A stretch of 38,422 nt of DNA from a virus (taxonomy: Duplodnaviria > Heunggongvirae > Uroviricota > Caudoviricetes), in the IMG/VR virus record IMGVR_UViG_2925919700_000005, positions 1 to 38,422 of that record. One strand, written 5' to 3'. Made by a program: the position numbers and the translations under genes. Of this stretch, positions 11,453 to 30,931 are shown piece after piece. The notes below the pieces were generated by a model. That model searched no databases. It was not told where the DNA came from and saw only the letters and a program-made list of their open reading frames with translations. Each line of letters starts with the position of its first letter. Position 1 is the first letter of the stretch.

Positions 11453-11497
11453 TAACCAACGGGGGCGCAATGCCCCCAATTAATTAAAGGTGATTAA

Positions 11498-13507: not shown

Positions 13508-13647
13508 AATAACGTAGAACCTTCTGTACCTTCCCCCGATTTGGGGGAAGAAAATCTGATTCCATCTCAGGAAGAAGAATCCCAGACGGTTACGGCGAAA
13601 GCCCCAGCTAAAAAGGTGGGACGTCCACCGAAAGCAAAATAATAATT

Positions 13648-13676
13648 AGCCCTGCCTAACGGTGGGGCTTTTTTGT
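13648..13676 (+). terminator. Rho-independent terminator after the capsid gene
   Basis: AGCCCTGCC-TAAC-GGTGGGGCT stem followed by TTTTTTG. Confidence 0.7.
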
Positions 13677-13704
13677 ATGTAAATACTCCATAAAGGGGGT
13701 AACT

Positions 13705-13995
13705 ATGTTCAAATTATCAGAATCACAATTATCAAGAATGTTCCGAAGTGCTCCTGTATTTTCGGTGGAAGGTGGTAAATCAATTCGTGCTTATCATGAA
13801 ATTACTACTACCGACGAACAAGGGGTAATGACAGAAACAGAGTTTCTATTTTGTCGTGAGGGAGACTTAAAGCAAGGTGATATTGTCATTGTAGAAAATC
13901 AGCGTTTCAAAGTTCAATACGTTAAGCGCAATGGTGACAATACAACTGATTGCTTTATCACTCTGGCAGGGGGTACACATGCTCGCTACCGTTAA
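13705..13995 (+). CDS. putative head-tail connector/adaptor protein (96 aa)
   Basis: AAAGGGGGTAACT-ATG; position directly after the capsid gene; functional call is by position only. Confidence 0.5.
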   Translation: MFKLSESQLSRMFRSAPVFSVEGGKSIRAYHEITTTDEQGVMTETEFLFCREGDLKQGDIVIVENQRFKVQYVKRNGDNTTDCFITLAGGTHARYR

Positions 13996-14401
13996 TAACA
14001 TGCCTAGACTGAAAATCAAACGCGCCTTGCAAGATATTATCGAACAAGATTTAGGTCTGGCTTTAAACGTAGAACAAACTCAGCAAGGCTTTAGTGATGA
14101 CGTGGTTTGTTGGATCACCGGAATGAATGAGACTTACACGCGTGTTCGTGGCGGTAATGCAATGCAAGCTGAATGTGTTATCGAAATGCAATTGTATTCT
14201 CAGATTCATGAAACCAAAATTCATGAGGGTATTTGCCAGATAATCCAGATTCAGCCGGATAACCCACGATTTAAAGATTTGGGCTTCTCTATTTCAGATA
14301 TCACTCCAGTAGCTTCTAATACCGATTATGACGATGATTCTAGTGATGGGGGTATCGTTGGGACACTTAGCCTTAAATTTTCTTATCTAGCGCGTTTTTA
14401 A
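13979..14401 (+). CDS. putative head-tail joining / tail terminator-like protein (140 aa)
   Basis: ATG 13979 has an AGGGGG SD and overlaps the upstream stop (coupling); the track's 13931 start is in the same frame. Confidence 0.5.
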   Translation: MLATVNNMPRLKIKRALQDIIEQDLGLALNVEQTQQGFSDDVVCWITGMNETYTRVRGGNAMQAECVIEMQLYSQIHETKIHEGICQIIQIQPDNPRFKDLGFSISDITPVASNTDYDDDSSDGGIVGTLSLKFSYLARF

Positions 14402-14410
14402 GGGGTAATA

Positions 14411-15244
14411 ATGAATATTACACAAGATAACTTAGACATTTTCACGGGGTCGCATGTTGAAGTCTCCGTGTCTACTATGGTGGATAACCAGCCGGATTTT
14501 TTCGATCCTGCATTTAGTCCTATCGAGAACATCGCAGCATTCCCGACGATAACCGAATCCACAGAGATCCAGACGTTAGAAGAGTATGATCAGGACGCTA
14601 CGGGTAAACTTGCTGGCTATCGTAAACTTGAATCAACTACGTTAGTAGTAAACCGTGTTCTGGATGACGAACATCAAGACATGTTGATGAAAGCGGTGAA
14701 TGATAAAACTCCTTTACGCTTTCGTATGTTCTATGTTGTGAACTCTGGTTACAGTGCTGCTAACACAGGTTACTACGTCATCTTTGACGCTTTCGTCTCG
14801 TCACATAAAACAAAATCCGGCGATAACAAAGCTGTAACACTGGAATTTAAACTTGAACCAGATGGCGGGATTTTGGCAAGGGGTATTGCTACCGAAGGCC
14901 GGATCTTACGTCAGGGTGATTTTGGTATTGGTGCTGGTGTAAATCCATTCACTGGTCCGATTGATAGCGAAGCATTAGCCGGAAACCGTTTCGTAACTTA
15001 TCAGGGATCAAGCGCATCTAATCCATTTAGTGCTGATACTTCACTAATTCACGTTCAACCTAATGAAGATGGTGGATGGCAATTAACTTGCACCGCTTCC
15101 GGCGCACCACGTTTACGAGTTCGCACAGTCCAGAAAGACGGTAATTCGGGATGGGTGAAAGTGTATTCCACAGAAGAAAAACCGACACCAGCCGAGATTG
15201 AAGCCGTTTCTATCCATGACCGGATCGATTTCGGGGAATACTGA
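14411..15244 (+). CDS. virion structural protein (277 aa); C-terminus shares a KPTPAEI motif with the tail fibre
   Basis: AAGGGGTAATA-ATG; C-terminal EEKPTPAEIEAVS versus fibre DKPTPAEIGAYS; hairpin and T-rich tract follow. Confidence 0.55.
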   Translation: MNITQDNLDIFTGSHVEVSVSTMVDNQPDFFDPAFSPIENIAAFPTITESTEIQTLEEYDQDATGKLAGYRKLESTTLVVNRVLDDEHQDMLMKAVNDKTPLRFRMFYVVNSGYSAANTGYYVIFDAFVSSHKTKSGDNKAVTLEFKLEPDGGILARGIATEGRILRQGDFGIGAGVNPFTGPIDSEALAGNRFVTYQGSSASNPFSADTSLIHVQPNEDGGWQLTCTASGAPRLRVRTVQKDGNSGWVKVYSTEEKPTPAEIEAVSIHDRIDFGEY

Positions 15245-15317
15245 TTGCTTCTCTAAATAAAACATGACGCGGGAGGTTAACGCCTCCCTTATTCCTGTTT
15301 TATAGTGAGGTGATTCG

Positions 15318-18300
15318 ATGCAGTCGATCCAATTTAAACGAACAAATGTTTCTGGCAAAAAACCAACGCCGGAACAATTACAGGTCGGTGAGGTGGCAAT
15401 CAACCTTAAAGACCATGTTATTTTTACCAAAGACCGAGATCATGAAGTAGTTCAAATCTCTGTTTCTCCTGAAACTCACGCGGCACTAGAATCTAAAGTT
15501 GATGCTAACAAACAAGAATTGGATAGCACAATTGCAGTAAATGACCGCAATATTCACGCTAAAGTAGATGAAATTAAACAAACTACTGATTCTACTATCG
15601 CAGCAAATCACGCAGAAATTAACAATAAAGTTGATGTAATTAAACGCGAAACCGACGCGACAATCGAGGCCAATAAAAATAAAGCTGCTTCCGATCTTGC
15701 TGGTGTTAAAGCTGAATTGTCGGATACTATCAACGCTAATAAAAATGCGGCTGCTGTAGCAACTCAGGAACTGGACACCCGCATCAATAAAAAAGTTGAT
15801 GATATTAAATCCCGTACTGATGCAACCATCGCAAGCAATCACAAAGCAATCAATGACAAGGTTGATTTGATTAAGGCAGAAACTGACCGCACTATCGCAG
15901 CAAATCAAGCCTATGCGGAAAATCAGTTAACTGACACCTACAATAACCTTACTGGTGTGATTGCAGCTAATAAGCAAGAGGCAGCGGATAGCGTCGCAGC
16001 ATTAACCCGTGATGTTGAAGCCAAAAATTCAGCAATTCATAGCAAAGTTGACAATAACAAGTCTTACACTGATTCTGAACTTGCACGTTTAGAAAGCCGT
16101 ATTGATGCAGCCGATGGATCTGCTGATGGCAAGTACATCAAAAAACACGTAAACACTTATACTGATGGTTATTTGCTGTCTAAGACCGCAAACTATTTTG
16201 ATGATCCAAATGCGCGTAATCTTAATTACTTTGGTGCATTCCGCATGAATGACCTGGCGGGTCATATTGCAATGATCTTGCATGTTCCGCATCCATCTGG
16301 TGTTAATCATGCTCGTGGCTTTGAGTTCACTTATGGGTCTAATCCGGTTCATACGGTAAGAACATACGGCTATGATGAATTGGGTCATTTGGCATATTCT
16401 CACCGCATGTATCATGAAGGTGATAAACCTACTCCTGCCGAAATTGGCGCATATTCGAAAGCAGAAATTGACCGACTGTTCCAGAAGACGCTTAATTTTG
16501 GGATCGAGGGTGGTTGGTTTAAACTAGGCACTTTGACAATGCCACAGCAACACGGTCGTAGTGCTAAGATCCGCTTAGTTGGTGGTAACGGTTATAACGT
16601 CGGGATGAATGGACAAGCCAATATTATCGAATTGGTGATTCGATGCGGCAACAATAGCCCGAAAGGTGTTGTATTCAATGCGTATTATACTATTTGGCAT
16701 TATGAACAACATTTTTGCGCTATTCCAACCGATGGCGACAATTACGATCTTTACGCTTACTACGGTGCACATACAGGATTTGTTTTAGCAGAATATCAAG
16801 TTTCTTCCGGTGGTGTTTCTTTAAACCTGTTGGATACTCCTGAATATCTGGGTGGTGAAAAACCTGTTGCAGATGAAATTTTTGATGCTCTTAACATTTC
16901 ATCGTTCACTAACTTTAGCAACCGTGGAACGTTAAATTTTGCGGGAAACCATCAAGGCCAATATGACATTGAGCATTTGAACGAACAACAAACTAACAGC
17001 AAAAAGATGTTGCGTCGCTTCCGTAGTTCTGCTCCTGCCACTATCTGGCATGAGACAGTTGATGATAACGCATATCGTCTTGCTACTGGATACGAAGATA
17101 CAAATCAGGAATTATTGCTGACAGCAACAACCGGGTTACATGTCAAGAGATTAACATTGGATGGTGGTGCTGCTGGTGGAAATGCTGGTATTGATATTCG
17201 TCGAGGACCAAACGAATCAAGCCATTTTAATTTTATGGATTATCGAACTGGTCAAGATGTTCGTAATGGCTGGTTTGGTTTTGGTGATTTGACGACCAAA
17301 GATTTTATTTGGTGGAACGATAACGGTCAAAACTCGATAAACTTGATCGAAAACGGTGAATTGCATATTACTGGCGGTAAAGGCCAGAAAATTGTAATGA
17401 ATAGCGAAGTTGCATTATCTGAAAATGCTCGTTTGGCTGTTAAAGGTGGCAATTATGGCTTAATTTTTAGAAATGATGGTACTGGTTTCCATATACTGAC
17501 TACCGATTTAAAAGATTCTTTTGGAAATTGGAATAATCGTAGACCATTCAGCTATAATTTTGATGATGGTGGACTATATTTAGGTGGCACTGAAACTGCT
17601 CGTTGTTTGCATCTGGGAATTGATGGTAGCACCCGTCTTGAGGAGAACTTAGTTTTCAGGGCGGGATCTCGTCAATCAATGGACTATATTGAAATGATCC
17701 ATTGGGGTAACAGTAATACCGCTCGTGACAACGTTTTGAGTATGAAAGACTCGAAAGGATTCCTTGCTGAATTTGAACGCGTGGGTGGGACTAACGGCGT
17801 TAAAACCAGATTCTTTGGTGAAACCTTCACTGACGGTACATTATACCTAAATCAGATGAATAATAGCTCTGAACGATTCTCTATCAACAATTGGGGAAAT
17901 TCAGAAGTTGGACGCGCGGCAGTAATGGAAATCGGTGATTCCAAAGGTTATCACTTCTATACTGAACGCAGGACAGATAACAGTTTGGCGTTTGATGTTG
18001 CTGGCGCTTTTACTGTGCATGGACCTAACGGAATAACCATCAAAAACTCAACTGGTGCACGCCATATCTGGTTTAGAGATGATAGCGATGCAGAAAAGGC
18101 TGTTATCTGGGCTACAGATGAGGGTATTTTACATATACGAAATAATCATGGGGGTTCATTTAGTCATCACTTCCAGGGTGCAATGATTAAAGCGGGAGAG
18201 CAAGTTCCTTATAATAGTGAATACGCTCTTATCCGTGGTGAGGTTTCTGGTGGTGCATGGGATGACTGGCGCAACCGTCCTGCTGGTATTCTCTTAGATT

Positions 18301-18839
18301 GTCAGGATTCACATACCCAAGCATATTCAATTTGGAAAGCAACTCATTGGGGTGTTGATCATCTTGCGGCAATGGGTGTTCATGCTGGCGGTGGTCAAGC
18401 TACCGTAATGATGCATATGAACAAAGGCGGCTGGTATTCATGGTCTGCAAATGGTGATTTCACATCTAGTGCGTCGGTTTACTGTAACGATGTTTATATT
18501 CGTTCCGACCGTCGTCTGAAAATTAACGTTGAAGACTACGAAGAAAATGCGGTAGATAAGGTAAATAAACTAAAAGTTAAAACCTACGATAAAGTTAAGT
18601 CTCTTTCTGACCGCGAAGTCATCGCACATGAGATTGGTATTATCGCACAGGATTTACAAGAAATTTTACCGGAAGCTGTTAGCACTTCTAATGTCGGATC
18701 TCTTGATAACCCAGAAGAGATTTTAACAATTTCTAACTCTGCTGTGAACGCGCTTTTAATTAAAGCGGTCCAAGAAATGAGCGAAGAAAATAAACTTCTT
18801 CGTGAACGTCTTGCTGCAATTGAAGCTAAATTAGGGTAA
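15318..18839 (+). CDS. long tail fibre with C-terminal S74 intramolecular chaperone (autoproteolytic) domain
   Basis: N-terminal ~250 aa of ~22-residue repeats (KVDxIKxxTDxTIAANxxxIN); C-terminal YIRSDRRLKINVEDYE...LLIKAVQEMSEENKLLRERLAAIEAKLG is the S74 signature with a predicted cleavage at S|D. Confidence 0.85.
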   Translation: MQSIQFKRTNVSGKKPTPEQLQVGEVAINLKDHVIFTKDRDHEVVQISVSPETHAALESKVDANKQELDSTIAVNDRNIHAKVDEIKQTTDSTIAANHAEINNKVDVIKRETDATIEANKNKAASDLAGVKAELSDTINANKNAAAVATQELDTRINKKVDDIKSRTDATIASNHKAINDKVDLIKAETDRTIAANQAYAENQLTDTYNNLTGVIAANKQEAADSVAALTRDVEAKNSAIHSKVDNNKSYTDSELARLESRIDAADGSADGKYIKKHVNTYTDGYLLSKTANYFDDPNARNLNYFGAFRMNDLAGHIAMILHVPHPSGVNHARGFEFTYGSNPVHTVRTYGYDELGHLAYSHRMYHEGDKPTPAEIGAYSKAEIDRLFQKTLNFGIEGGWFKLGTLTMPQQHGRSAKIRLVGGNGYNVGMNGQANIIELVIRCGNNSPKGVVFNAYYTIWHYEQHFCAIPTDGDNYDLYAYYGAHTGFVLAEYQVSSGGVSLNLLDTPEYLGGEKPVADEIFDALNISSFTNFSNRGTLNFAGNHQGQYDIEHLNEQQTNSKKMLRRFRSSAPATIWHETVDDNAYRLATGYEDTNQELLLTATTGLHVKRLTLDGGAAGGNAGIDIRRGPNESSHFNFMDYRTGQDVRNGWFGFGDLTTKDFIWWNDNGQNSINLIENGELHITGGKGQKIVMNSEVALSENARLAVKGGNYGLIFRNDGTGFHILTTDLKDSFGNWNNRRPFSYNFDDGGLYLGGTETARCLHLGIDGSTRLEENLVFRAGSRQSMDYIEMIHWGNSNTARDNVLSMKDSKGFLAEFERVGGTNGVKTRFFGETFTDGTLYLNQMNNSSERFSINNWGNSEVGRAAVMEIGDSKGYHFYTERRTDNSLAFDVAGAFTVHGPNGITIKNSTGARHIWFRDDSDAEKAVIWATDEGILHIRNNHGGSFSHHFQGAMIKAGEQVPYNSEYALIRGEVSGGAWDDWRNRPAGILLDCQDSHTQAYSIWKATHWGVDHLAAMGVHAGGGQATVMMHMNKGGWYSWSANGDFTSSASVYCNDVYIRSDRRLKINVEDYEENAVDKVNKLKVKTYDKVKSLSDREVIAHEIGIIAQDLQEILPEAVSTSNVGSLDNPEEILTISNSAVNALLIKAVQEMSEENKLLRERLAAIEAKLG

Positions 18840-18877
18840 TTGGAAAGCGGGGAGAAATCTCCGCTAAGGATTCTTAT

Positions 18878-19174
18878 ATGGGATATTGGGTAAGTAGTGA
18901 AATTAATACTAAAATCGATGCTTTAAAATGGCATGTGTTTGATATTCCTAATGGATATGTTCCCGGACGTGCTGGTGTTGCCGTTTTGCGGCATACCGCT
19001 CGTGATGGTTGGGGCGATATGCATATTTTCGTTGACGGTGTGGTCGCCGCGCGTCGTCGTGGTGGTGGGGATTGGGGATTTACGGTTAATGCGTTTGTTC
19101 CTGCTGGATGTACTGTCACCTTTGGTCATGGGGGTGTCGGTGGTATTGAATACTTTAAATTTATGGAGTTTTAA
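18878..19174 (+). CDS. glycine-rich small protein, paralog 1 of 3 (98 aa)
   Basis: TAAGGA SD; shares M-x-x-W-V, W[FH]xIPNG[WY], GGGD and a basic aromatic C-terminus with the next two ORFs. Confidence 0.65.
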   Translation: MGYWVSSEINTKIDALKWHVFDIPNGYVPGRAGVAVLRHTARDGWGDMHIFVDGVVAARRRGGGDWGFTVNAFVPAGCTVTFGHGGVGGIEYFKFMEF

Positions 19175-19176
19175 TT

Positions 19177-19482
19177 ATGGCTGGATGGGTTGCTGGAAGA
19201 ATGGCTAATGCCATTAGCATTTATGCTAATGGCGGCTGGTTTGGTATCCCTAATGGTTGGGTGGCGGATTCATGCGGTATTGTGTCTGTTCATGCCGAAG
19301 CCGTTGGTGGCGGTGGTGACCTGGACGCAGAATTATATGTAAACGGTACTCTCGAATCAGGTCATCACGCTGGTAATGCAGGAAGTTGGGGAGCAAGTTC
19401 TTTAGTTGGTGCTGGCGCTACTGTCAGTTTTAGTATTGGTAAAGGAAGTTTAAACCACTTCCAATTTAGGAGAATGCAATAA
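19177..19482 (+). CDS. glycine-rich small protein, paralog 2 of 3 (101 aa)
   Basis: Starts 2 nt after the paralog-1 stop; GIPNGWVADSCGIVSVHAEAVGGGGD. Confidence 0.65.
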   Translation: MAGWVAGRMANAISIYANGGWFGIPNGWVADSCGIVSVHAEAVGGGGDLDAELYVNGTLESGHHAGNAGSWGASSLVGAGATVSFSIGKGSLNHFQFRRMQ

Positions 19483-19784
19483 TGGCATTTTGGGTAGATG
19501 GTGCTTTAGGTAATAGAGCAGGTAAAGCGAATCAAGGATGGTTTGATATTCCTAACGGTTGGACACCTGACGCTTTCGGCACGGTTTCATTTGGTGCTCA
19601 TTCTTCTGGTGGTGGCGGTGGTGACTCAGAATTGCTTTTGCATGGCTTTTGTGTGTCTGGAAGTCATAAGGGTCATGATTGGGGACAGATCCATTCTTGT
19701 ATTGTGCCGCAAGGGGCGGTAATTACCGTTAGCACAAATAGGGGGGTCGCTCATCTTCGTTATAGACGTTTGAGCAACCGCTAA
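19482..19784 (+). CDS. glycine-rich small protein, paralog 3 of 3 (100 aa)
   Basis: ATG overlaps the paralog-2 stop (TAATG); DIPNGWTPDAFGTVSFGAHSSGGGGGD. Confidence 0.65.
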   Translation: MAFWVDGALGNRAGKANQGWFDIPNGWTPDAFGTVSFGAHSSGGGGGDSELLLHGFCVSGSHKGHDWGQIHSCIVPQGAVITVSTNRGVAHLRYRRLSNR

Positions 19785-19838
19785 ATAAATAGAATTACGG
19801 GTATGTGCCCTATTGTTTAAAATAGAAGGAAAAGAATA

Positions 19839-20312
19839 ATGACTACTAAATTTGATATTTTCTCTGGTGGCCTCGTTGGTCTGTTTCTGCAAGAAGACGT
19901 AAGCAATAAAGACCTTGATGCTGAAACCTATCTGGAAATCCCAGAATGCGCAGCGTTCCCGGAAACTGGTGTAGAACGTTCTACGATCGATGTTCCTAAC
20001 TTCTCTGGTGCTTATAACCGTAAGCTGGTTGGTCGTATGTCTGTACCGGATATCGAACTTTCGATCAACTACATGCCGGGTAACGAAGTACACGAAAAAC
20101 TGATTAAAGCAACCGAAGACGGTAAGCGCGTACAGCTTAAAATTGCTTACTACATCGATGCTACGAAAAAATCTGGTGTACATATCGCTTATAACGGCTT
20201 CCTGTCTAAAACTACCATGACTGGTGGTGAGGATGCTGTAGTAGGCCGTACCTTCACCTTTGTAGTAGATGGTGCTCCGGTTAAACAAGCTGTTTTCCAG
20301 AAAGTCGTCTAA
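19839..20312 (+). CDS. major tail tube protein (lambda gpV N-domain-like)
   Basis: Lies directly before the chaperone and tape measure genes; IELSINYMPGN resembles lambda V TSFTLAWMPGE (from memory); AAGGAA SD; strong terminator follows. Confidence 0.6.
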   Translation: MTTKFDIFSGGLVGLFLQEDVSNKDLDAETYLEIPECAAFPETGVERSTIDVPNFSGAYNRKLVGRMSVPDIELSINYMPGNEVHEKLIKATEDGKRVQLKIAYYIDATKKSGVHIAYNGFLSKTTMTGGEDAVVGRTFTFVVDGAPVKQAVFQKVV

Positions 20313-20320
20313 TATTATCT

Positions 20321-20349
20321 AGCCATCCTTCGGGGTGGCTTTTTTGTTT
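20321..20349 (+). terminator. Rho-independent terminator after the tail tube gene
   Basis: AGCCATCC-TTCG-GGGTGGCT followed by TTTTTTGTTT. Confidence 0.75.
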
Positions 20350-20606
20350 CCAATTCTAAATAAACATATCGAATTAACTTAAGAGGAAACAAGAATGAAT
20401 ATTAATGAAATGTTAGCCGCACTCTCTCCGAAACGTGAATCTTTGACCATCGGTGGATTCACTTTCTATGCTCGCCCTATGTCAGTAAAAGAATTTAACG
20501 AACATGTTTTCAATACTGATAAAGAAGACCGTGATGAACGTTCTATTCTTCGTTGTATTGAAGATGAAGACGGTAAGCCAGTATTTGAATCTATGGAACA
20601 AGTTAA

Positions 20607-20615
20607 GGCACTGTA
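20607..20615. repeat. IS10 target-site duplication, left copy (GGCACTGTA)
   Basis: Identical 9-mer immediately flanks both ends of the element. Confidence 0.95.
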
Positions 20616-21944
20616 CTGAGAGATCCCCTCATAATTTCCCCAAAACGTAACCATGTGTGAATAGATTTTGAGTAAGCAGGGTTGCAGCCACGAGTGAGTC
20701 TTCCCTTGTTATTGTGTAGCCAGAATGCCGCAAAACTTCCATGCCTAAGCGAACTGTTGAGAGTACGTTTCGATTTCTGACTGTGTTAGCCTGGAAGTGC
20801 TTGTCCCAACCTTGTTTCTGAGCATGAACGCCCGCAAGCCAACATGTTAGTTGAAGCATCAGGGCGATTAGCAGCATGATATCAAAACGCTCTGAGCTGC
20901 TCGTTCGGCTATGGCGTAGGCCTAGTCCGTAGGCAGGACTTTTCAAGTCTCGGAAGGTTTCTTCAATCTGCATTCGCTTCGAATAGATATTAACAAGTTG
21001 TTTGGGTGTTCGAATTTCAACAGGTAAGTTAGTTGCTAGAATCCATGGCTCCTTTGCCGACGCTGAGTAGATTTTAGGTGACGGGTGGTGACAATGAGTC
21101 CGTGTCGAGCGCTGATTTTTTCGGCCTTTAGAGCGAGATTTATACAATAGAATTTGGCATGAGATTGGATTGCTTTTAGTCAGCCTCTTATAGCCTAAAG
21201 TCTTTGAGTGACTAGATGACATATCATGTAAGTTGCTGATAGGTTTCCAGTTTTCCGCTCCTAGGTCTGCATATTGTACTTTTCCTCTTACTCGACTTAA
21301 CCAGTACCAACCCAGCTTCTCAACGGATTTATACCATGGCACTTTAAAGCCAGCATCACTGACAATGAGCGGTGTGGTGTTACTCGGTAGAATGCTCGCA
21401 AGGTCGGCTAGAAATTGGTCATGAGCTTTCTTTGAACATTGCTCTGAAAGCGGGAACGCTTTCTCATAAAGAGTAACAGAACGACCGTGTAGTGCGACTG
21501 AAGCTCGCAATACCATAAGCCGTTTTTGCTCACGGATATCAGACCAGTCAACAAGTACAATGGGCATCGTATTGCCCGAACAGATAAAGCTAGCATGCCA
21601 ACGGTATACAGCGAGTCGCTCTTTGTGGAGGTGACGATTACCTAACAATCGGTCGATTCGTTTGATGTTATGTTTTGTTCTCGCTTTGGTTGGCAGGTTA
21701 CGGCCAAGTTCGGTAAGAGTGAGAGTTTTACAGTCAAGTAAGGCGTGGCAAGCCAACGTTAAGCTGTTGAGTCGTTTTAAGTGTAATTCGGGGCAGAATT
21801 GGTAAAGAGAGTCGTGTAAAATATCGAGTTCGCACATTTTGTTGTCTGATTATTGATTTTTGGCGAAACCATTTGATCATATGACAAGATGTGTATCTAC
21901 CTTAACTTAATGATTTTGATAAAAATCATTAGGGGATTCATCAG
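20616..21944 (-). mobile_element. IS10 insertion sequence, complete (1329 bp)
   Basis: Ends CTGAGAGATCCCCTCATAATTTCCCC (inside end, 20616) and ...AAAATCATTAGGGGATTCATCAG (outside end, 21944); length 1329 bp; encodes the 402-aa IS10 transposase. Confidence 0.97.
20629..21837 (-). CDS. IS10 transposase
   Basis: 402-aa translation MCELDILHDSLYQFCPELHLKRL...HGYVLGKL matches the IS10/Tn10 transposase as I recall it; start is 107 bp inside the outside end. Confidence 0.97.
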   Translation of the reverse strand: MCELDILHDSLYQFCPELHLKRLNSLTLACHALLDCKTLTLTELGRNLPTKARTKHNIKRIDRLLGNRHLHKERLAVYRWHASFICSGNTMPIVLVDWSDIREQKRLMVLRASVALHGRSVTLYEKAFPLSEQCSKKAHDQFLADLASILPSNTTPLIVSDAGFKVPWYKSVEKLGWYWLSRVRGKVQYADLGAENWKPISNLHDMSSSHSKTLGYKRLTKSNPISCQILLYKSRSKGRKNQRSTRTHCHHPSPKIYSASAKEPWILATNLPVEIRTPKQLVNIYSKRMQIEETFRDLKSPAYGLGLRHSRTSSSERFDIMLLIALMLQLTCWLAGVHAQKQGWDKHFQANTVRNRNVLSTVRLGMEVLRHSGYTITREDSLVAATLLTQNLFTHGYVLGKL

Positions 21945-21953
21945 GGCACTGTA
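21945..21953. repeat. IS10 target-site duplication, right copy (GGCACTGTA)
   Basis: Perfect copy of 20607-20615. Confidence 0.95.
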
Positions 21954-22070
21954 TACTAACGTTCGAAGTGAATTAATCGGTTTAGTTGCTCAAGCGTCAT
22001 TGATGCAAGATCCGGCAGTAATTGAAAACGAGGTAAAGTAAACCCGCTTCTGAATTTCTATTTCCGGCAA

Positions 22071-22412
22071 ATGATGAGATCGGGGCTTAGTAAAGATGAA
22101 ATGGATAATATGCCAATCACTCTGTTTTGGAAATTATACATTTTCGACACCTACTTAGAACCACAAAGCCCCGCGTTTCATGATATGCAGAATGCGATGT
22201 TGCAATATTCCATGTATATGACGTCGCAAGGAATGACACGCGAAACTGCACGTAAACTCAAGCCTAGCCAATTCCAATTAATTAGAGAAGAAAAACTCTT
22301 TAAAACTAAAGAAGAACTGGAAGAAATTGCACGCAAGAAAGAAGAAGAACGTAAAGCGGCAATGCTGAACATGTTTGATCCATCTTTGCTTGAGAAACTC
22401 AGAAGCGGTTAA
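22071..22412 (+). CDS. tail assembly protein (lambda T-like position), possibly the downstream part of a frameshifted chaperone
   Basis: This frame is -1 relative to the chaperone and open from 22026; ends just before the tape measure start. Confidence 0.5.
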   Translation: MMRSGLSKDEMDNMPITLFWKLYIFDTYLEPQSPAFHDMQNAMLQYSMYMTSQGMTRETARKLKPSQFQLIREEKLFKTKEELEEIARKKEEERKAAMLNMFDPSLLEKLRSG

Positions 22413-22423
22413 AGGGGTAATTT

Positions 22424-24853
22424 ATGACAAGACATATAGTAACAATAGAAGGGGATAATAAAGGTCTAAGGAGAAGTACCAATGAAGCCGCCGACCTTCT
22501 CGATAGTTTGTCTGAAAAGGCAAGTAATATTGATTTTGGTGGTGGCTTATCTGGTCTGACTGGGTCTCTTCGTGGGATCGCTGGCTCTGCTGGTTTGGCT
22601 GCTGGTGGTATCGGCTTAGTTGCGACCGCAGTGGTTGCAGCCGCTAAAGCTGGCGCGGAATACGTTAAACAGTATTCAGAAGTATCTAAGGCGACCGGAC
22701 TCTCGATTGAATCCCTTCAAAGACTGGAAAAGGAATTTTCTGGCACTGGCTTAACAGTTGAAAAATTTGGCGATATCAACAAAGACACCTTAGATAAGAT
22801 GGGTGATGCGTGGGCTAACGGTGGTGGTATTGCTGATGACTTAGAATCGGTTGGCCTTAAGTTAGAAAACTATGCTCACTTCATGACAGATCCGCAAGGT
22901 GGTATGAAAGCGGCGATCCAAGTGTTCTATGACATGAAGAAAGCCGGAAAATCAATGGCTGAAATCAAGTTCATGATGGAATCTTTAGCCAGTGATTCAA
23001 GCCATATGACCAGCCAGCTTGAGAAATATAATAGTGCTCAAGAGGCGATGATCGCTATTCAGAATCAATCTGTTAACGTCACCGAAGAAAACGCTAAAAA
23101 ATATGATAAATTTTCTCAGAATATTAATAAGCTGGAAAATAACCTGAAAGGTGTCGGCATGACCATTACTGGTCCTTTGGTTGATAGCTTAAACTGGTTA
23201 TTTGACTGGTTTAATATTGATTGGGAAAAGAGTTCTCTATTCAGGGCATTAGACCGACTGAATAAAGAAGGCAAGACCGCAACTGGCGGTATTCTTAACG
23301 CCAACCATAAAGACGCTCAAAAAATTATTGACAAGTACAATAAAGAAAAGCGTTGGAATAATCTGGCAGATTGGGAAAAGGCCGCGATCCGTGGTGCTGG
23401 TGTCGATCCTCGTACTGCTGGCTTTGATGTAGAAGCATATAAGAAACGTTTTGGTAATTCTTATAAGAAAAATGGCTCTCTGATTGTAGTCGATAACGGG
23501 GAACATCTAACCCGCAAGGCAGATCCTAACCGTGATTTGACTATCCCAACTACACCAACTCGACCAGCTTCATTGGGTAAGTCTGGCAACGAGAAGAAAG
23601 CCGAGGAAGAAGCCAAAAAGAAAGCGGAAGAGGCAGCTAAAAAGGCTAAGGAAGCCGCAGAAAAAGCACAGAAAGAACGTGAGGATGCAATCAAGCGTCT
23701 GAATGCACTTGATGTTAAATTGCAAGGGCAAGTCGCCGCGTCTATTGCTTCTCAAAACAAGCAATTAGAATCCAGTTTGAAAGATTTGGACACTGCTTTA
23801 GATCTGGGCTTAATCTCTCAGCAAGACGCAGCCGCGAAACGCCAATCCTTAATCGATCAGAATACTGAAAACGTATACAAAATGGTTTTAGGTGCTGATC
23901 CGGTTGATGCTTTGAATGCCTTAACACAATTGCAACAAATAAGGGACAACGAGCTAGAAAGCCATAAACGGTTACTTGATGGTAAAGCTATCTCCTACGA
24001 AGAATATATGCGTCGTGTGAACGATACCGAGCAAAACTATTCTCAGATTGAAAATTCTTTACAGGGAATGGATGGTTTTAAAACCAATCAGTTGACCAAT
24101 AGCTTAGACTATCAGGATTCAAATAACCCGTTTGCTAAATTTAATGCAATCGATAAAGAGAAATCGGAAGCGGAACAAGATTATAAAACCGATAAACTCA
24201 AGATTGACGGTATTAATGATCCGGCTAAACGGATGGAAGCATTAGAAAAACTCAATGAAAACCATCAAAAACGAATGGCTGCAATTGAGAAGAAATATGC
24301 TGATGCTCGACAGTCAATAGCCGATGATATGTATGGCGGTTTTGCTGCTGCAATGACTCTCTTCGGGCAGGAAAACACTAAAGCTATGCAGATGGCTTTC
24401 ACTGCTCATAAAGCATTCTCCATTGGACAAGCGACGGTGAACATGTGGACGGCTGCTACCGATGCATGGAACGATCCAACCAACGTAACCACAGGTCAAA
24501 AAATCGCTGCTGCTGCATTGGCTGTTTCTCAGAACATGGGGAGCATCGCAAACATCAAGTCTACTAACGTTAGCGGTATGGCTCATGATGGTATTGATAA
24601 CATCCCTCGTGAGGGTACATGGCTGCTTGATAAGGGTGAACGAGTAGTTGATCAGCGTACTAACGGTGATTTGAAAGACTTCTTATCTGCTCAAAAATCA
24701 GGCGGTGGTAACTCTCAGCCGATTGAAGTTAACGCACCTTTGAACATTAACGGCAACGTTAATAGCTCAGACAAGATGGTCATGGATGCTATCAAACGTC
24801 ATGCTAAGTTAGTTGCTCAGGCGGTAGAAGACGCACAGCGCCGTAAGATGTAA
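22424..24853 (+). CDS. tape measure protein
   Basis: 809 aa, directly downstream of the tube and chaperone genes; N-terminal Gly/Ala-rich hydrophobic segments and long K/E-rich helical regions; AAAGGGGTAATTT-ATG. Confidence 0.8.
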   Translation: MTRHIVTIEGDNKGLRRSTNEAADLLDSLSEKASNIDFGGGLSGLTGSLRGIAGSAGLAAGGIGLVATAVVAAAKAGAEYVKQYSEVSKATGLSIESLQRLEKEFSGTGLTVEKFGDINKDTLDKMGDAWANGGGIADDLESVGLKLENYAHFMTDPQGGMKAAIQVFYDMKKAGKSMAEIKFMMESLASDSSHMTSQLEKYNSAQEAMIAIQNQSVNVTEENAKKYDKFSQNINKLENNLKGVGMTITGPLVDSLNWLFDWFNIDWEKSSLFRALDRLNKEGKTATGGILNANHKDAQKIIDKYNKEKRWNNLADWEKAAIRGAGVDPRTAGFDVEAYKKRFGNSYKKNGSLIVVDNGEHLTRKADPNRDLTIPTTPTRPASLGKSGNEKKAEEEAKKKAEEAAKKAKEAAEKAQKEREDAIKRLNALDVKLQGQVAASIASQNKQLESSLKDLDTALDLGLISQQDAAAKRQSLIDQNTENVYKMVLGADPVDALNALTQLQQIRDNELESHKRLLDGKAISYEEYMRRVNDTEQNYSQIENSLQGMDGFKTNQLTNSLDYQDSNNPFAKFNAIDKEKSEAEQDYKTDKLKIDGINDPAKRMEALEKLNENHQKRMAAIEKKYADARQSIADDMYGGFAAAMTLFGQENTKAMQMAFTAHKAFSIGQATVNMWTAATDAWNDPTNVTTGQKIAAAALAVSQNMGSIANIKSTNVSGMAHDGIDNIPREGTWLLDKGERVVDQRTNGDLKDFLSAQKSGGGNSQPIEVNAPLNINGNVNSSDKMVMDAIKRHAKLVAQAVEDAQRRKM

Positions 24854-24856
24854 TTA

Positions 24857-24903
24857 AAAGCCCTCATAGTGATAAATAATCATAAAACTATGGGGGCTTT
24901 TTC
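24857..24903 (+). promoter_or_regulatory. Hairpin AAGCCCTCATAG...CTATGGGGGCTT that sequesters the GGGGG Shine-Dalgarno of the next gene; also terminator-like (T-run)
   Basis: 12-bp stem with one G-U pair and a 19-nt loop, followed by TTTTT; the right arm GGGGG lies 9 nt upstream of ATG 24905. Confidence 0.5.
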
Positions 24904-24904
24904 T

Positions 24905-25465
24905 ATGTTCAAATCCAAAAATATTAAAATCACAGATTTTACTCTTAAATCAAAACAACCTTTCTTCAAGGCGCAATCTATTTCTGGTAAGTTCCAGCGT
25001 CGCTTTACTGGTATTCATTTTTATGAAGCAGAATTTACAGCTAATTTCATGGCTCAGGATATTAACGAAGTAAAAGAATTTGTAGCACGTCACCTTTTTG
25101 GTCGTCCTTTTAGTGTGCCACTGTCTTACTTTTCAAAATATACAGGTGATGTACGCCAGATGGTTACGGCTGCTGCTGGTACTGCTCGCGGTGGGCGTAA
25201 GGTGAGAATCTCCAACTTCACCGGAACACTGAAAGCGGGAACTATCATCCAGTTTGAGAACCACAAGAAAATCTACACGATCACCGAAGATGTGAAATCA
25301 GGTGGTGAAATGAAACTCTTCCCTAACTTGCGTCAGAACGTCCTGGCGGGTGAGGTGATCAAGTATCAAAACGTAGAAGGCGAATTTGTTCTCAAAACTG
25401 AAAATATCGATTGGAAGATCGCCCAGATTGGCAAGATGAAATTCGAATTAGTGGAGAATGTATAA
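24905..25465 (+). CDS. minor tail protein (lambda gpM-like position)
   Basis: First gene after the tape measure; start chosen at ATG 24905 downstream of the hairpin; functional call by position only. Confidence 0.5.
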   Translation: MFKSKNIKITDFTLKSKQPFFKAQSISGKFQRRFTGIHFYEAEFTANFMAQDINEVKEFVARHLFGRPFSVPLSYFSKYTGDVRQMVTAAAGTARGGRKVRISNFTGTLKAGTIIQFENHKKIYTITEDVKSGGEMKLFPNLRQNVLAGEVIKYQNVEGEFVLKTENIDWKIAQIGKMKFELVENV

Positions 25466-26118
25466 TGGCAACTATTCAGGAATCATTCAGCAAACTATGC
25501 ACTAATCTGGACTTCATCGAGGTCTACAACGACCAGACAGGTCAGAATGTGTCTAGATTGACGCTACCGCAGCTTTTTTCCACTGGATCGATGTTTCACA
25601 TTATCGAAGTGATAACAGCGTCAGGGGACGTTCTACGGCTTACAGATGGGTATTTCGATTTGGACTATAACGGATTTACGTATCTCGCAACGGGTGATTT
25701 TCTTCAAATCTCATCGAATACCGAAGAGAAGGAGATCAACAACAACGGGATCAACGTAACTGTTTCTAACGTTCGCGAAGAATACATTACCCTGATTCGA
25801 AACAAGCAATTCGATAAATCAGATGTGAAAATCGAGATGGTTTTCCTGAACCCTAACACGGGCAAGGTTGAAACCACTTACCCTGTTTTCCGTGGGGTAG
25901 TCGATTCCATCGGGATTAACATCGAACATGAAGATGATGAGTGTAAAAACGAATCAGAATTTCAGCTTAATAGTATCTGGGAAGTTCTAGATAAAAACGC
26001 TCGTAGTCATGCTTCCGATGGTATCCACCGATCCTATGTTGGAAACGAGAACGATCTATTCTTCTCAAGGGCGGGTCGCTGGCAATCGGAAAGCAAGTGG
26101 CATTCATCGAAGAAATAA
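25465..26118 (+). CDS. minor tail protein (lambda gpL-like position)
   Basis: ATG overlaps the upstream stop (TAATG); GGAGA SD; position in the tail tip cluster. Confidence 0.5.
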   Translation: MATIQESFSKLCTNLDFIEVYNDQTGQNVSRLTLPQLFSTGSMFHIIEVITASGDVLRLTDGYFDLDYNGFTYLATGDFLQISSNTEEKEINNNGINVTVSNVREEYITLIRNKQFDKSDVKIEMVFLNPNTGKVETTYPVFRGVVDSIGINIEHEDDECKNESEFQLNSIWEVLDKNARSHASDGIHRSYVGNENDLFFSRAGRWQSESKWHSSKK

Positions 26119-26164
26119 TCCCTTCTCCCTAAGCCTAGTAAATAACAGCATGGAGGTATTCAAC

Positions 26165-26584
26165 ATGCTAAAAACTAGGCTTATCACCGATTACATCAAT
26201 TCTTTAATAGGTCAGGAGTTCGTTCAAGGCGAGAATGATTGCAATCTAATTGCATGTAAGATCATCGATATTCTCGCTGGTACTGACCTATATAATTCTC
26301 TTTATAAAAAATATTCAACTAAAGAAGAAGGCTTGAAAATCTGCAAAGAATTAAGCGGGTATTCAAATATCCTTCAACCAATTAAGAAACATTTCAAATT
26401 AGTCACTGATGATTTACAGGACGGCGACTTACTGGTCACAGCCCACAAATTAGGGAACCGCAAATATTATTCCGTAGTTCCTCATTATTCCGGTTATGGC
26501 CTCGTTGAAGAAGATGGTATCTGGATGACCATTCCTGTTTCAGACATTGAATATGAACAAGTTTATAGATTCGGGGGTGAATAA
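26165..26584 (+). CDS. tail assembly protein with NlpC/P60-like Cys-His motif (lambda gpK-like C-terminal domain)
   Basis: GGAGG SD; QGENDCNLIACKI (candidate catalytic Cys) and a downstream His (TAHKLG); stop overlaps the J start. Confidence 0.5.
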   Translation: MLKTRLITDYINSLIGQEFVQGENDCNLIACKIIDILAGTDLYNSLYKKYSTKEEGLKICKELSGYSNILQPIKKHFKLVTDDLQDGDLLVTAHKLGNRKYYSVVPHYSGYGLVEEDGIWMTIPVSDIEYEQVYRFGGE

Positions 26585-29500
26585 TGGGATTTGAAGTATT
26601 GGTAGGCGCGGTTATTGCTGGTGCGTCTGCTGGGATGGCTGCTGCTGCAACATTTTCTGTTATGACCGCAGTCGCTATCGGTATGGCTGCTGGTGCAATG
26701 ACCTTGATCGCTTCCACTGTAGGCGCACCAAAAACACCTAAAGTACAAAGCCCAGATAATGCGGTGACACTAGGAACATCAAACGATCCTAAGACAGTAT
26801 TACCCGTCCTTTTCGGTACTACCCGCACGGGTGCAATCTGCGTTTACAAAGCAATTTCACAGCGTGAAAACAACAAACTGGTACAAATTTTTGCTATTTC
26901 AGAAGGTGAGATCGATCACTTTAAAGCACTGCACATCGATAATAAAAATGTTCTCATTAGCCAGAATATGACAATTCGTGATGGTGTTCTCGATAAAGGA
27001 AACATTAAAGAAGAATACCGCAAAGTGTTAGAAGTCGAGTTTCGCACGGGTAAAAATCCTAACACCGCATTGGATTTAGCTAAACATCATTTGGGCGCAG
27101 ATTGGGATGATCGGTATCAGGGTAACGGCATTGCGACCATGTGTATTGTTTTACGTCGTGATGACAAATCTTTGGCTGCTGGTGTTGATATTCTCCAGCC
27201 TAATAGCCAGGTAGCGGTCGATGTTATGGGCTTAAAAATCCGTAACCTCGAAACCAATGCTATTGAGGCAAGCACTAACGGCGTGGACCAGATTTTCCAT
27301 TACCTAACAAATGAAAAATATGGTCTATCAGTACCAATTGAAAACATTAACGTTGATTCATTCCTGAAAGTACGTAAGCAAGTACGCCAGATGGATTTGC
27401 ATTCAAACGGTGCATGTGATCCGAACGCCAGCTTTAAAGAGAACTTGACTAGCCTTATGCAGACTTTCGGCGGGGTAATGTTCGAATCCTTCGGAAGAAT
27501 TACCCTGAAACTGGATGCTCCTGATATTGTTAAGCATACCTTCAATGAAGACAATATTATGATGGGTAAAGTATCACTGAAAACAGGTGGCACTAACGGT
27601 TATTTCAATACCATTAACGCGATGTATCAAGAACCATCAATTGACTATTCCGAGCAAATGCTACGTTATCCGGCTGATGCTGAAAACGATGCTACTATTC
27701 GTCAAGATGGTCGAATTATCGCTAAAGATATTGAATATCGTTTTGTTAAGTCTAAAGCCCAGATTGATAAACTCGCGAGCATTGAGCGAAATAAATCTCG
27801 TATCACTCAGGTTATCAGCTTCATGACTACTGACGCATTCACTGCCGAAGTGTGGGATGTTATTAGCGTTACCTATGATGAATTGAAACTGAATAATTCA
27901 CTTTGGCGCATTACTGCAATTGATCGCTCGATTGATTCTGGTATTGCTGGGATGATGACTATCACCGCCACAGAATATAATTCTCAGGTTTATACTGACC
28001 TGAACTATGCGGCGACTCCAGACAATAGACCTACCGGTTTACCGGATTCAATGACAGTACAGAAACCGACTAATTTCAGAATTAAGGCAACTGGTGAGAC
28101 AATCCACGGTAAAAACGTAACTTTGACATGGGACGCACCGGAAGATTTTAACCGCTACGGTTTCCAGATTGATTATCGTGTGAGTGGATCACCTAACTGG
28201 ATTAAGCTGGGACAGACTTCACAGCAAATTTTCAATATCAATGCACTGGCAAAAGATCGCTCCTACGATTATCGCGTTTGTGCTTTCGGTATTATTGCTC
28301 GTTCCGAATGGGTGGAACTGGTTAACCAGAATCCAGAAGTTACCTATGAACTGCCTACTCCAGTGATCCGCATCAAAAATCAGGGTAGTTCACCTGGTAC
28401 TTTCGAAGGCAATGATCTGATTATCGAATGGGAAAATCAGCAACAATTAGATGTGATGATCAACGGCGAAGCTAACAAGTTTAGTGACCTGTTTGAAGCA
28501 TACATTATCAAGGTGACTAACAAGGCTGGTAAGTCTATTCAGTACCGTACCCGCGATCCTGAATCATGGACCTATACGCTTGATATGAACCAGTTTAACG
28601 GCCTTTCCCGTGAATTGACGGTAGAAGTATCGGCTAAGGGCTATAACAACTCAGAGAGCGCCCCAGCGCGTTTAGTGGCTATCAACCCACAACATAAGCC
28701 GATGAAAGGTTTTAGTGCGCGTGGTGGCTTTAATACTGCGTTTGTTAGCTGGGCGGATGACGTAGAACATGACTATGCAGGGTCAATCATTCAGTATGCA
28801 ACCGATAACACTTTCTCCGATGCAAGGGCAGTGACTACCAATAGCGTTAGTCATACTTCCTTTGATTTGGCTGACGGTGATTATTATATCCGTGGTGCTC
28901 ACTACGATATTTTCGGTATGGATGATGCTGTTTGGTCTGAACCGTATTTCATGCAAATGAAATCTACCATTAGCTGGGACGATCAGGACAAAGAAGCACT
29001 TGAAGACCTGATTGGTTTACAAGATCGCTTAGATGAAACTATCGCGGATGCTATTGCTCAAGCTGGCGCTAATGCCGATGCTAAAATTGATGCAATGCAT
29101 AAGCAAATCACTACCGAAACCGGAAAGACGGTCCAAGCCTCAGCCGATACTCTCAAGAGTCTGATTGCTACCAGCGAGCAAGCTAGCTCCACTAAGATTG
29201 ATCAGGTTAAAGCTGAACTGAAAGGCGATATCACCAATGAAGTTAGCGCATCTGCTACTACCCTGAAACAAGCAATTGCTACCAGTGAGGCAGCAAGCGC
29301 AAGTAAGATCGACCAAGTTCGGGTAGAAATGGATGGCAAGATTGCTGGTGTGAATCAGGAAGCAGATGTAAAAATCGATGCTTTGAAAGGAACCATTAAC
29401 AGCAAATACAATCTAGCGGTTAATGCAGATGGTCGCGTGGCTGGTATTCATATGAGCGCAACCAACGATCCGGCGCAACCGACGAGAATCATCTTTACGG

Positions 29501-30360
29501 CTGATAAAATCGCGGTAGCTCCACAGAACGGATCGGAAGTATGCCCGTTTGGTATCGAAGATAACAAAGTTTATCTCGATAATGCGATGATTCGTAATGC
29601 TGCAATTGGCACAGCCCAGATTAGTGATGCTAGTATCACCACGGCTAAAATCGGCACAGCCCAGATTAACGGCGCTCACATCCAACACGCACAGATCGGA
29701 ACAGGTCATATTATTGATGGCTCTATCGATAATGCTAAAATTGGTAACTATATCCAGTCTTATAACTGGAATGGTAACGATGGATGGTATATCGGGAAGG
29801 ATGGCACTTGTCATTTTAGACACGCTAACATTCGTGGTCATTTGGTGGCTGATTCCGGCGAAATGAACAACGTAACGATTAATTCAAGTTGCCGCATTTT
29901 GGGTATGCTTGATGCTAATCAGGTGCGTGGTGACTTCGTGAAAGCTATTGGTCGTCGATTCCCACATTGGGACGAAAACCCATCATTGGGCTATCCCGGT
30001 TATCCGCAAGGTACAATCACTGTTCGAATTGAAGATGATCACCCGTTTGATCGTCAGATTATCGTTCCGGCTATTAGCTTTGGTGGTCTTAATGCGCGTG
30101 AAGGCTCGAATAACAATACTTACTATGATAACTGTCGCTTGATTGTTCGCAAGAACGGTGCTGAATTATATAACCGTGCATATGGTAGACAGACTGGATT
30201 GTATAGTGCTGTTATTGATATGCCAGCCGGACACGGACCAGTTACGCTAACTTTTGAAGTAAGTTCAAGCGCAATCAACAACTGGACTCCCAGCACATGG
30301 ATCAGCGATCTAACGGTAATGGTAACTAAGAAAGCCGCTACTGGTATTTCTGTTTCTTAA
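26584..30360 (+). CDS. central tail fibre / host specificity protein (lambda J-like) with an N-terminal gpI-like Gly/Ala-rich segment
   Basis: C-terminus DDHPFDRQIIVPAISFGG...MPAGHGPVTLTFEVSS...DLTVMVTKKAATGISVS closely parallels the lambda J receptor-binding C-terminus (from memory); fibronectin-III-like repeats mid-protein; N-terminal 90 aa resemble the lambda I C-terminal region. Confidence 0.9.
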   Translation: MGFEVLVGAVIAGASAGMAAAATFSVMTAVAIGMAAGAMTLIASTVGAPKTPKVQSPDNAVTLGTSNDPKTVLPVLFGTTRTGAICVYKAISQRENNKLVQIFAISEGEIDHFKALHIDNKNVLISQNMTIRDGVLDKGNIKEEYRKVLEVEFRTGKNPNTALDLAKHHLGADWDDRYQGNGIATMCIVLRRDDKSLAAGVDILQPNSQVAVDVMGLKIRNLETNAIEASTNGVDQIFHYLTNEKYGLSVPIENINVDSFLKVRKQVRQMDLHSNGACDPNASFKENLTSLMQTFGGVMFESFGRITLKLDAPDIVKHTFNEDNIMMGKVSLKTGGTNGYFNTINAMYQEPSIDYSEQMLRYPADAENDATIRQDGRIIAKDIEYRFVKSKAQIDKLASIERNKSRITQVISFMTTDAFTAEVWDVISVTYDELKLNNSLWRITAIDRSIDSGIAGMMTITATEYNSQVYTDLNYAATPDNRPTGLPDSMTVQKPTNFRIKATGETIHGKNVTLTWDAPEDFNRYGFQIDYRVSGSPNWIKLGQTSQQIFNINALAKDRSYDYRVCAFGIIARSEWVELVNQNPEVTYELPTPVIRIKNQGSSPGTFEGNDLIIEWENQQQLDVMINGEANKFSDLFEAYIIKVTNKAGKSIQYRTRDPESWTYTLDMNQFNGLSRELTVEVSAKGYNNSESAPARLVAINPQHKPMKGFSARGGFNTAFVSWADDVEHDYAGSIIQYATDNTFSDARAVTTNSVSHTSFDLADGDYYIRGAHYDIFGMDDAVWSEPYFMQMKSTISWDDQDKEALEDLIGLQDRLDETIADAIAQAGANADAKIDAMHKQITTETGKTVQASADTLKSLIATSEQASSTKIDQVKAELKGDITNEVSASATTLKQAIATSEAASASKIDQVRVEMDGKIAGVNQEADVKIDALKGTINSKYNLAVNADGRVAGIHMSATNDPAQPTRIIFTADKIAVAPQNGSEVCPFGIEDNKVYLDNAMIRNAAIGTAQISDASITTAKIGTAQINGAHIQHAQIGTGHIIDGSIDNAKIGNYIQSYNWNGNDGWYIGKDGTCHFRHANIRGHLVADSGEMNNVTINSSCRILGMLDANQVRGDFVKAIGRRFPHWDENPSLGYPGYPQGTITVRIEDDHPFDRQIIVPAISFGGLNAREGSNNNTYYDNCRLIVRKNGAELYNRAYGRQTGLYSAVIDMPAGHGPVTLTFEVSSSAINNWTPSTWISDLTVMVTKKAATGISVS

Positions 30361-30378
30361 AATTTAATTCTAATAATT

Positions 30379-30418
30379 AATCCCGCTTAATTCTTTTGGG
30401 TTAGGCGGGATTATTTTT
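30379..30418 (+). terminator. Rho-independent terminator after the J-like gene
   Basis: AATCCCGC ... GCGGGATT followed by TTATTTTT. Confidence 0.7.
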
Positions 30419-30462
30419 ATCTAAATAATTCTGCCATTAAATTATAAAATATCGGGGGCGTA

Positions 30463-30741: not shown

Positions 30742-30759
30742 TAATAAAGGGGTGAATAT

Positions 30760-30930: not shown

Positions 30931-30931
30931 C

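Follow-up and report, generated by a model that had tools for sequence, protein, structure and literature searches.

The 38,422-nucleotide stretch of DNA analysed here (positions 1 to 38,422 of the IMG/VR virus record IMGVR_UViG_2925919700_000005; hereafter the window) carries a complete copy of the insertion sequence IS10 inside a predicted tail assembly chaperone gene, the equivalent of gene G of phage lambda. It is very probable that this element, whose sequence is identical to the IS10-Left arm of transposon Tn10, has hopped very recently, and in a single lineage, into the G equivalent of a ~37-kb prophage in the chromosome of Escherichia coli. The hop is considered to be very recent because sibling strains exist that have the empty site and zero mismatches, because the insertion sequence is identical to its source allele and because the target duplication is perfect.

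Structure of the inserted element and of its target site

The element was identified by reading the sequence and by a script check. It occupies positions 20616-21944 of the window, on the minus strand, and is 1329 base pairs (bp) long. As defined here, an IS10 element has this length and imperfect terminal inverted repeats beginning with CTGA(G/T)(A/G)(G/A)ATCCCCT, and the terminal inverted repeats found in the window (CTGAGAGATCCCCTCATAATTT and CTGATGAATCCCCTAATGATTT) place the element in this family. The left terminus, at 20616, is the inside end (CTGAGAGATCCCCTCATAATTTCCCC), and the right terminus, at 21944, is the outside end (the reverse complement of CTGATGAATCCCCTAATGATTTT). Between these ends there is a single intact open reading frame (ORF) for a DDE transposase of 402 amino acids (aa), as is characteristic of IS10, running on the minus strand from 21837 to 20629 and matched by Pfam DDE_Tnp_1 (E=1.5e-24) and by the NCBIfam model of IS4-family transposases, NF033591 (402 bits, cut-off 152). 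A further hallmark of IS10, the antisense RNA called RNA-OUT, is found at full length at 21830-21899 on the plus strand (Rfam RF00240; 97.3 bits, gathering score 41, E=2e-20), and from this strand it follows that its promoter, pOUT, faces the outside end and, beyond it, the tail genes that come next. The Rfam scan finds no family besides RNA-OUT, there are no tRNA genes, and neither tet genes nor a second IS10 are present in the window. The complete element with canonical ends and its intact transposase gene, as claimed in a preliminary description made from the sequence alone, are indeed seen.

The element is abutted on both sides by identical copies of the 9-mer GGCACTGTA, at 20607-20615 and at 21945-21953, as is typical of an IS10 target duplication. 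When both strands of the 38.4-kb window are scanned, only these two copies are found, and the site is single-copy in all relatives, which bears out the perfect duplication of the preliminary description. The probability that one given pair of 9-mers is identical by chance is 4^-9 (~4e-6). The 9-mer is compatible with the relaxed IS10 target consensus NRCNNNGYN (PMC4574204), and it agrees with the hotspot core GCTNAGC at three of six positions. The target is thus not a hotspot, in agreement with a one-off event rather than with insertion at a recurrent hotspot. The IS10 and the duplicated 9-mer together amount to 1338 bp of foreign sequence in the provirus.

Assignment of the element to an arm of Tn10

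All 1329 bases of the element are equal to those of copies in many E. coli chromosomes and plasmids, where the NCBI annotation names them "ISVsa5 family". Both Tn10 arms of plasmid R100 (NC_002134.1) were compared with the element. The comparison with the arm on the jemA/gltS side (36132-37460) gives zero differences in 1329 nucleotides (nt) and zero amino acid differences in the transposase, whereas the arm on the tetC/tetD side, IS10-Right, differs at 15 nt (98.87% identity), these being positions 24, 25, 27, 47, 83, 107, 410, 425, 903, 1249, 1268, 1271, 1272, 1281 and 1300 from the outside end, and at four residues of the transposase (window to IS10-Right: I266V, S381L, T389A and V398A). 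Six of the 15 differences are located within the first 107 nt of the outside end, in the pIN/pOUT and RNA-IN/RNA-OUT region. For the assignment of the arms, the outside end of IS10-Right was presumed to be GATTTTGGTAAAAATC, and the R100 annotation was used. The published gene order (PMC5571418) was the third element of this assignment.

By this alignment to both IS10R and IS10L, which the preliminary description had named as a check, the element is the IS10-Left allele of Tn10 and not IS10-Right. The likeness to the IS10-Left of Tn10 (R100/NR1) extends to every nucleotide, including the terminal inverted repeats, the 402-aa transposase gene and RNA-OUT, and it is completed by the 9-bp target duplication; the difference is that the window has a solo element, whereas in R100 it is an arm of a composite transposon. 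With IS10-Right, the textbook active IS10, the element shares its length and organisation.

Copies of the IS10-Left type are frequent. This allele is the best match, at an identity of at least 99%, in 1387 of the 2301 IS10-bearing E. coli records (IS10-Right would give 98.87%), and IS10 is found at up to 45 places per genome. Judged from these counts, the IS10-Left-type allele seems to be at least as successful in nature as IS10-Right. A de novo insertion of IS10-Left into a plasmid has also been observed in NEB5alpha (PMC11481808).

Occupied and empty forms of the insertion site

An exact look-up of the truncated 74-aa product of G leads to the NCBI draft assembly GCA_013369685.1, an independent assembly in which the identical product is called. 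In this assembly, contig JABXDQ010000033.1 has 100% identity to the window over 15,425 nt and breaks off within IS10, exactly 127 nt from the inside end, in what looks like an assembly break at a repeat with k=127. Contig JABXDQ010000019.1 begins within IS10, 812 nt from the outside end, continues across that end and through the remainder of the prophage as far as ycdY and csgG, and has 100% identity to the window over 17,290 nt. This assembly has left the insertion sequence unbridged and yet has both junctions, so that the insertion is supported independently of the window. With respect to the element itself, the left contig extends to window position 20742 and the right contig begins at window position 21133. 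This unequal reach of the two contigs suggests that other IS10-related sequence in GCA_013369685.1 has the inside-end part but not ~685 nt of the outside end, for example as a truncated copy.

The empty form of the site is seen in the relatives. About 30 IMG/VR relatives align to the window up to position 20615 and resume at 21945, with an overlap of 9 nt that corresponds to an empty site in all of them, and in one of these the single-copy 9-mer can be read directly. The flanks are colinear with those of the relatives. The occupied left junction, queried as the 29-mer GTTAAGGCACTGTACTGAGAGATCCCCTC, has no match in IMG/VR or in the species representatives of GTDB, and none of the complete genomes of E. 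coli covers both sides of a 400-bp junction query. The insertion is rare, as follows from its absence from these three collections, and outside the window only the exact look-up of the 74-aa product reveals it.

Several siblings with the empty site are isogenic with the window. In GCA_012314665.1 there are zero mismatches over window positions 5318-20615 and 21945-38422 (~31.8 kb), in SRR6380509 there are zero mismatches over 15246-20615 and 21945-38422, and the shorter flanks of SRR7278639 likewise have zero mismatches. Of the contigs with the identical tape measure protein, only those of the GCA_013369685.1 lineage have the insertion, and the remaining ORFs of the prophage keep the lengths that they have in intact relatives. 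On these comparisons the insertion is a single, very recent event in one lineage, and the recent hop of the preliminary description is upheld. That description had set a defective prophage and a recent hop from a host bearing Tn10/IS10 side by side as alternatives; both are true, and they are not alternatives.

Three further, unrelated contigs with the same 74-aa product (from GCA_013065185.1, SRR22784515 and ERR1656403) were considered as occupied sites and rejected. Their ends read GGCACTGTAT(AC), which is the sequence of the empty site, and they are not counted. These contigs end 1-3 nt from the insertion point (window position 20615 or 21954-21956). This is probably due to chance, the contigs having been picked out by the exact look-up of the 74-aa product, but a graph branch from a second prophage copy or a nearby polymorphism may also be the cause. 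An origin of the IS10 as a cloning artefact of library hosts (DH10B, DH5alpha) was likewise rejected, since E. coli is itself the host here and the sequences come from whole-genome assemblies of isolates.

The interrupted, putative chaperone gene

The gene divided by the insertion has its place between those of the tail tube and tape measure proteins. Upstream is the gene for the major tail (tube) protein (19839-20312, plus strand; phrog_158, E=6.7e-20), which has weak matches to Pfam Phage_TTP_12/11 and is annotated as 'phage tail tube protein' in the relatives. The truncated 5' part of G (20395-20619, plus strand) has 74 native codons; codon 74, TAC, borrows its C from IS10, and the stop codon TGA is formed by bases 2-4 of IS10. 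The truncation of the G product is therefore as first described. The orphaned 3' part, of 28 codons and the stop codon TAA, lies at 21954-22041 on the plus strand. Excision of the IS10 and one copy of the 9-mer restores an ORF of 309 nt, encoding 102 aa plus the stop; that removal of the element restores a chaperone ORF had been predicted correctly, but its length had been given as 101 aa. A 102-aa gene is likewise annotated at the G position in intact relatives.

The restored protein matches the PHROG family of tail assembly chaperones, phrog_344 (E=1.8e-7). It is followed by a T-like frame (22038-22412, plus strand), in the -1 frame relative to G, which opens 13 nt ahead of the G stop and ends at 22412. 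The first gene after G and T is that of the tape measure protein (22424-24853, plus strand; 809 aa; phrog_13674, E=5.7e-65). The order tail tube, restored G, T, tape measure is that of lambda; the lambda-G position of the restored ORF and the T-like frame downstream of it had been noted in the preliminary description. A putative slip site, GGTAAAG, is present at 22032-22038, at the end of the orphaned 3' part of G. Across 22 distinct relatives the sequence GAGGTAAAGTA, which includes GGTAAAG-TAA, does not vary, and 21 of these relatives have a -1 T frame that remains open for 128-131 codons. G is identified as a chaperone from three features: the phrog_344 match, the conservation of the -1 T frame, and a position between the genes of the tube and tape measure proteins.

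The lambda G/GT system is similar in its place between the major tail and tape measure genes, in having a small G ORF followed by a -1 T frame, in the PHROG chaperone family of the restored G, and in a slip motif ending in AAAG before the G stop. In lambda the slip site is GGGAAAG, immediately before the stop codon of G (PMC3296357). The slip of the A-site lysine codon from AAG to AAA would be alike in both. Synteny and conservation lend good support to the G/GT architecture, and the frameshift itself is suggested by conservation and position; we infer that T is normally expressed only as a G-T fusion.

A strong hairpin resembling an intrinsic terminator is found by a consensus scan at 20321-20340 (plus strand), between the tail tube gene and G. 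It has an 8-bp stem with five G-C pairs, followed by TTTTTTGTTTC. The hairpin sequence is AGCCATCCTTCGGGGTGGCT, with the T-run after it. This putative terminator may set the ratio between the transcript of the tube protein and that of the chaperone and tape measure protein.

Predicted consequences of the insertion

The proposed event is a transposition by the usual cut-and-paste mechanism of IS10, in which a staggered cut of the target by 9 bp would give rise to the 9-bp duplication. With codon 74/75 of the lambda G equivalent as the landing point, G would be truncated to 74 of its 102 residues, and its remaining 28 codons, together with the slip site and the T frame, would be displaced 1.3 kb downstream, such that full-length G would not be made. 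The conserved GGTAAAG-TAA slip site would be out of reach of the ribosomes, and no G-T fusion would be formed. Late transcripts would cross ~1.3 kb of IS10 in the antisense direction relative to the transposase gene, untranslated, and a polar effect of the insertion on T and on the genes of the tape measure and tail tip is probable. This expectation of polarity rests on Rho-dependent polarity. Read-through from pOUT may compensate for the polarity only in part, and RNA-OUT normally ends at nt 47 of IS10 (PMC5006887).

On induction, the prophage would be expected to produce DNA-filled heads, no functional tails and no infectious particles. The exception would be rare revertants generated by precise excision across the 9-bp repeats. 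Such precise-excision revertants are known for Tn10/IS10. In phage TP901-1, the gpG::Ter and gpT mutants give only capsids and zero infectivity (PMC4493119), and lambda requires both gpG and gpGT (PMC3296357). By analogy with these two phages, the prophage should be tail-defective on induction and is probably not inducible to infectious particles; the tail defect expected in the preliminary description is thus a sound prediction.

The provirus and its chromosomal site

Judged from its ends and from its relatives, the window is a ~37-kb provirus of siphovirus type in the E. coli chromosome, located within ycdX beside ycdY/csg, and not a free phage. The claim that this DNA is either a defective prophage or a phage variant can thus be narrowed to a prophage, as it is not a packaged phage genome. 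Tape measure proteins that are 92-98% identical are found in ~30 IMG/VR proviruses of ~35 kb, and the tail tube and G region is present in 51 of 5,426 complete E. coli genomes (~1%), always in the chromosome. In strain UTME-12 (NZ_CP157095.1), the prophage end has a 559-aa serine recombinase beside ycdY, ycdZ and csgGFED. The left side of the relatives adjoins ghrA and a truncated form of the PHP-domain gene ycdX. The first base of the window comes after the truncated ycdX gene call, and its final base is in the start codon of the last prophage gene ahead of ycdY; as both ends are at gene edges, the provirus has been trimmed at gene boundaries. The window has its own 559-aa serine recombinase gene at 35859-37538 (minus strand), and it is by this recombinase that the prophage integrates into ycdX next to ycdY/csg. 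Some relatives of the prophage are located elsewhere, beside a Peptidase_U32 gene and hicAB.

No close isolated-phage relative of the backbone is found among 50,697 phage records, which match in mosaic segments only; the best match of the tape measure protein in these records has 37% aa identity (phage DCP80). Only two segments of the window resemble isolated phages, which are T-even phages: the 3' part of the tail-fibre gene with the small ORFs downstream of it, and a UvsW-like helicase gene. The tail-fibre gene (15318-19800; 1173 aa) encodes a protein with the domains Gp34_trimer and Peptidase_S74. The 3' ~2.4 kb of this gene and the downstream small ORFs have 84-97% nt identity to the gp37 distal long-tail-fibre region of T-even phages, the virulent phages with a matching region including vB_EcoM_G37-3, G2248 and IME340. 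This suggests that T4-like phages and a temperate prophage of siphovirus type have recently exchanged receptor-binding modules. The UvsW-like helicase gene (32396-33895, minus strand; Pfam UvsW_N, ResIII and Helicase_C) is 84-85% nt identical to uvsW of RB49/Phi1-like T-even phages and is the second T-even-like mosaic segment.

For seven left-arm ORFs of the provirus, Pfam gives no match. Positions 3112-4500 form a region of ~1.4 kb between divergent genes, with no ORF longer than 66 aa, and the matching region is left empty by gene callers in the relatives. Neither an Rfam family nor a tRNA gene is found in this region, which could be a regulatory or origin region of the prophage. In UTME-12, which is the closest relative with a complete genome, an IS1B is present inside the portal gene (10425-11122 of the UTME-12 stretch compared), and the portal coding sequence is 421 aa there compared with 503 aa in the window. 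Inactivation of morphogenesis genes by insertion sequences is therefore recurrent in this prophage family.

Alternative explanations

A misassembly, with host IS10 reads from elsewhere misplaced inside the prophage contig, had been raised in the preliminary description. IS10 is indeed multi-copy in many E. coli genomes, and in this lineage the short-read contigs are interrupted at the element, such that a scaffolder had to bridge it. Nevertheless, separate contigs of GCA_013369685.1 read from unique prophage DNA into IS10 on either side, and a 9-mer that is single-copy in ~30 relatives yet exactly duplicated here is the signature of a transposition and not of a chimeric join. As the flanks are also colinear with those of the relatives, a misassembly is excluded as a realistic account, its probability being extremely small. 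An old insertion, fixed in a cryptic prophage that has long been decaying, would be in line with the fact that prophages of this family do acquire insertion sequences, as in UTME-12. It is highly unlikely in view of the sibling with the empty site and no substitution over ~31.8 kb, of an element still 100% identical to its source allele between perfect repeats, of the intact lengths of all other prophage ORFs, and of the restriction to one lineage among the contigs with the identical tape measure protein. We have as little confidence in the possibility that the window is a packaged variant of a free phage, propagated with its IS10 as a virion. The window does contain a complete set of genes for head, tail, lysis-type and recombinase functions, and host genes are absent from it, but the assembly with the same insertion continues directly into ycdY, ycdZ and csgG, the left end abuts the truncated ycdX, and both limits of the window coincide exactly with gene boundaries, as expected of a provirus prediction after trimming. 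Moreover, none of the isolated phages matches past the mosaic segments, and a genome null for G/GT should not propagate as a phage.

It is also conceivable that the insertion is not a simple knock-out, if transcription from pOUT together with an ORF starting at the ATG at 21889 supplied enough of a G'-T product and of the downstream tail proteins. RNA-OUT and pOUT are directed at the downstream genes, the ORF 21889-22041 leaves IS10 in frame with the last 28 codons of G and extends to the slip site, and transcription reading out of IS10 has been described (PMC11481808). Against this, RNA-OUT has its normal end at nt 47, as mentioned above, the ATG is inside the RNA-OUT stem, and an exact look-up of the gene-call collection finds no gene with such a chimeric product. 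The chimera would also be without G residues 1-74, which are most of the chaperone domain and include the part that is said to bind the tape measure protein, and loss of either G or T abolishes the tails of TP901-1 (PMC4493119). Taken together, this makes a functional bypass very improbable. Somewhat less improbable, although still unlikely, is that the IS10-Left-identical allele has transposed on its own and that, in the lysogen, pOUT constitutively transcribes T and the genes of the tape measure and tail tip, the prophage being partly domesticated, possibly under selection. Autonomous transposition of IS10-Left would fit the finding that this allele is the closest match in most IS10-bearing E. 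coli records. A prophage domesticated in this way would retain immunity, heads and lysis but could not spread.

Several points weigh against the proposed recent inactivation of G, or against parts of it. The Pfam scores of the two proteins are below threshold: the restored G has 22.2 bits with Phage_TAC_13 (cut-off 28.8) and the T frame has 19.9 bits with Phage_tail_T (cut-off 25.9, E=1e-3). T has no PHROG match, and the G/T region has no NCBIfam match. GGTAAAG is not a canonical XXXYYYZ heptamer, differing from it at the third base, and the P-site valine codon GUA would re-pair poorly with GGU, so that P-site re-pairing is weaker than in lambda. The tail deficiency and the polarity are predictions. 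IS10-Left has been termed inactive or weakly active (PMC11148124), so that another IS10 copy may have mobilised it in trans. Finally, the insertion could have arisen during laboratory culture of the isolate and not in nature.

Precedents and implications

The element is an exact copy of a known allele and the target is a typical lambda-like locus; the mechanism is not new, and an event of this type is known and ordinary. Insertions of such elements into phage and prophage genes, by which these are inactivated or altered, are commonplace. In the lambdoid phage CL707 (EF120459.1), a host IS10 has similarly landed in phage DNA, in the immunity region. The target gene and site are different, and the IS10 of CL707 is 98.7% and not 100% identical to the window element. 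The UTME-12 relative is alike in having a host insertion sequence in a prophage gene, and it differs in the target gene and site.

The finding is relevant mainly to correct annotation. When this provirus is used as a phage genome, for example in studies of host range, taxonomy or tail genes, it should be considered that 1338 bp of it are foreign, that G/GT is split and that it is probably non-infectious; the intact reference form is available in sibling strains. The insertion is a clean natural case of an insertion sequence inactivating a prophage, datable to zero substitutions and with isogenic strains in existence, and the isogenic pair would be useful for studying the function of G/GT or the mobility of IS10-Left. 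It also indicates that the supposedly inactive IS10-Left allele is mobile, possibly in trans, and common in wild E. coli.

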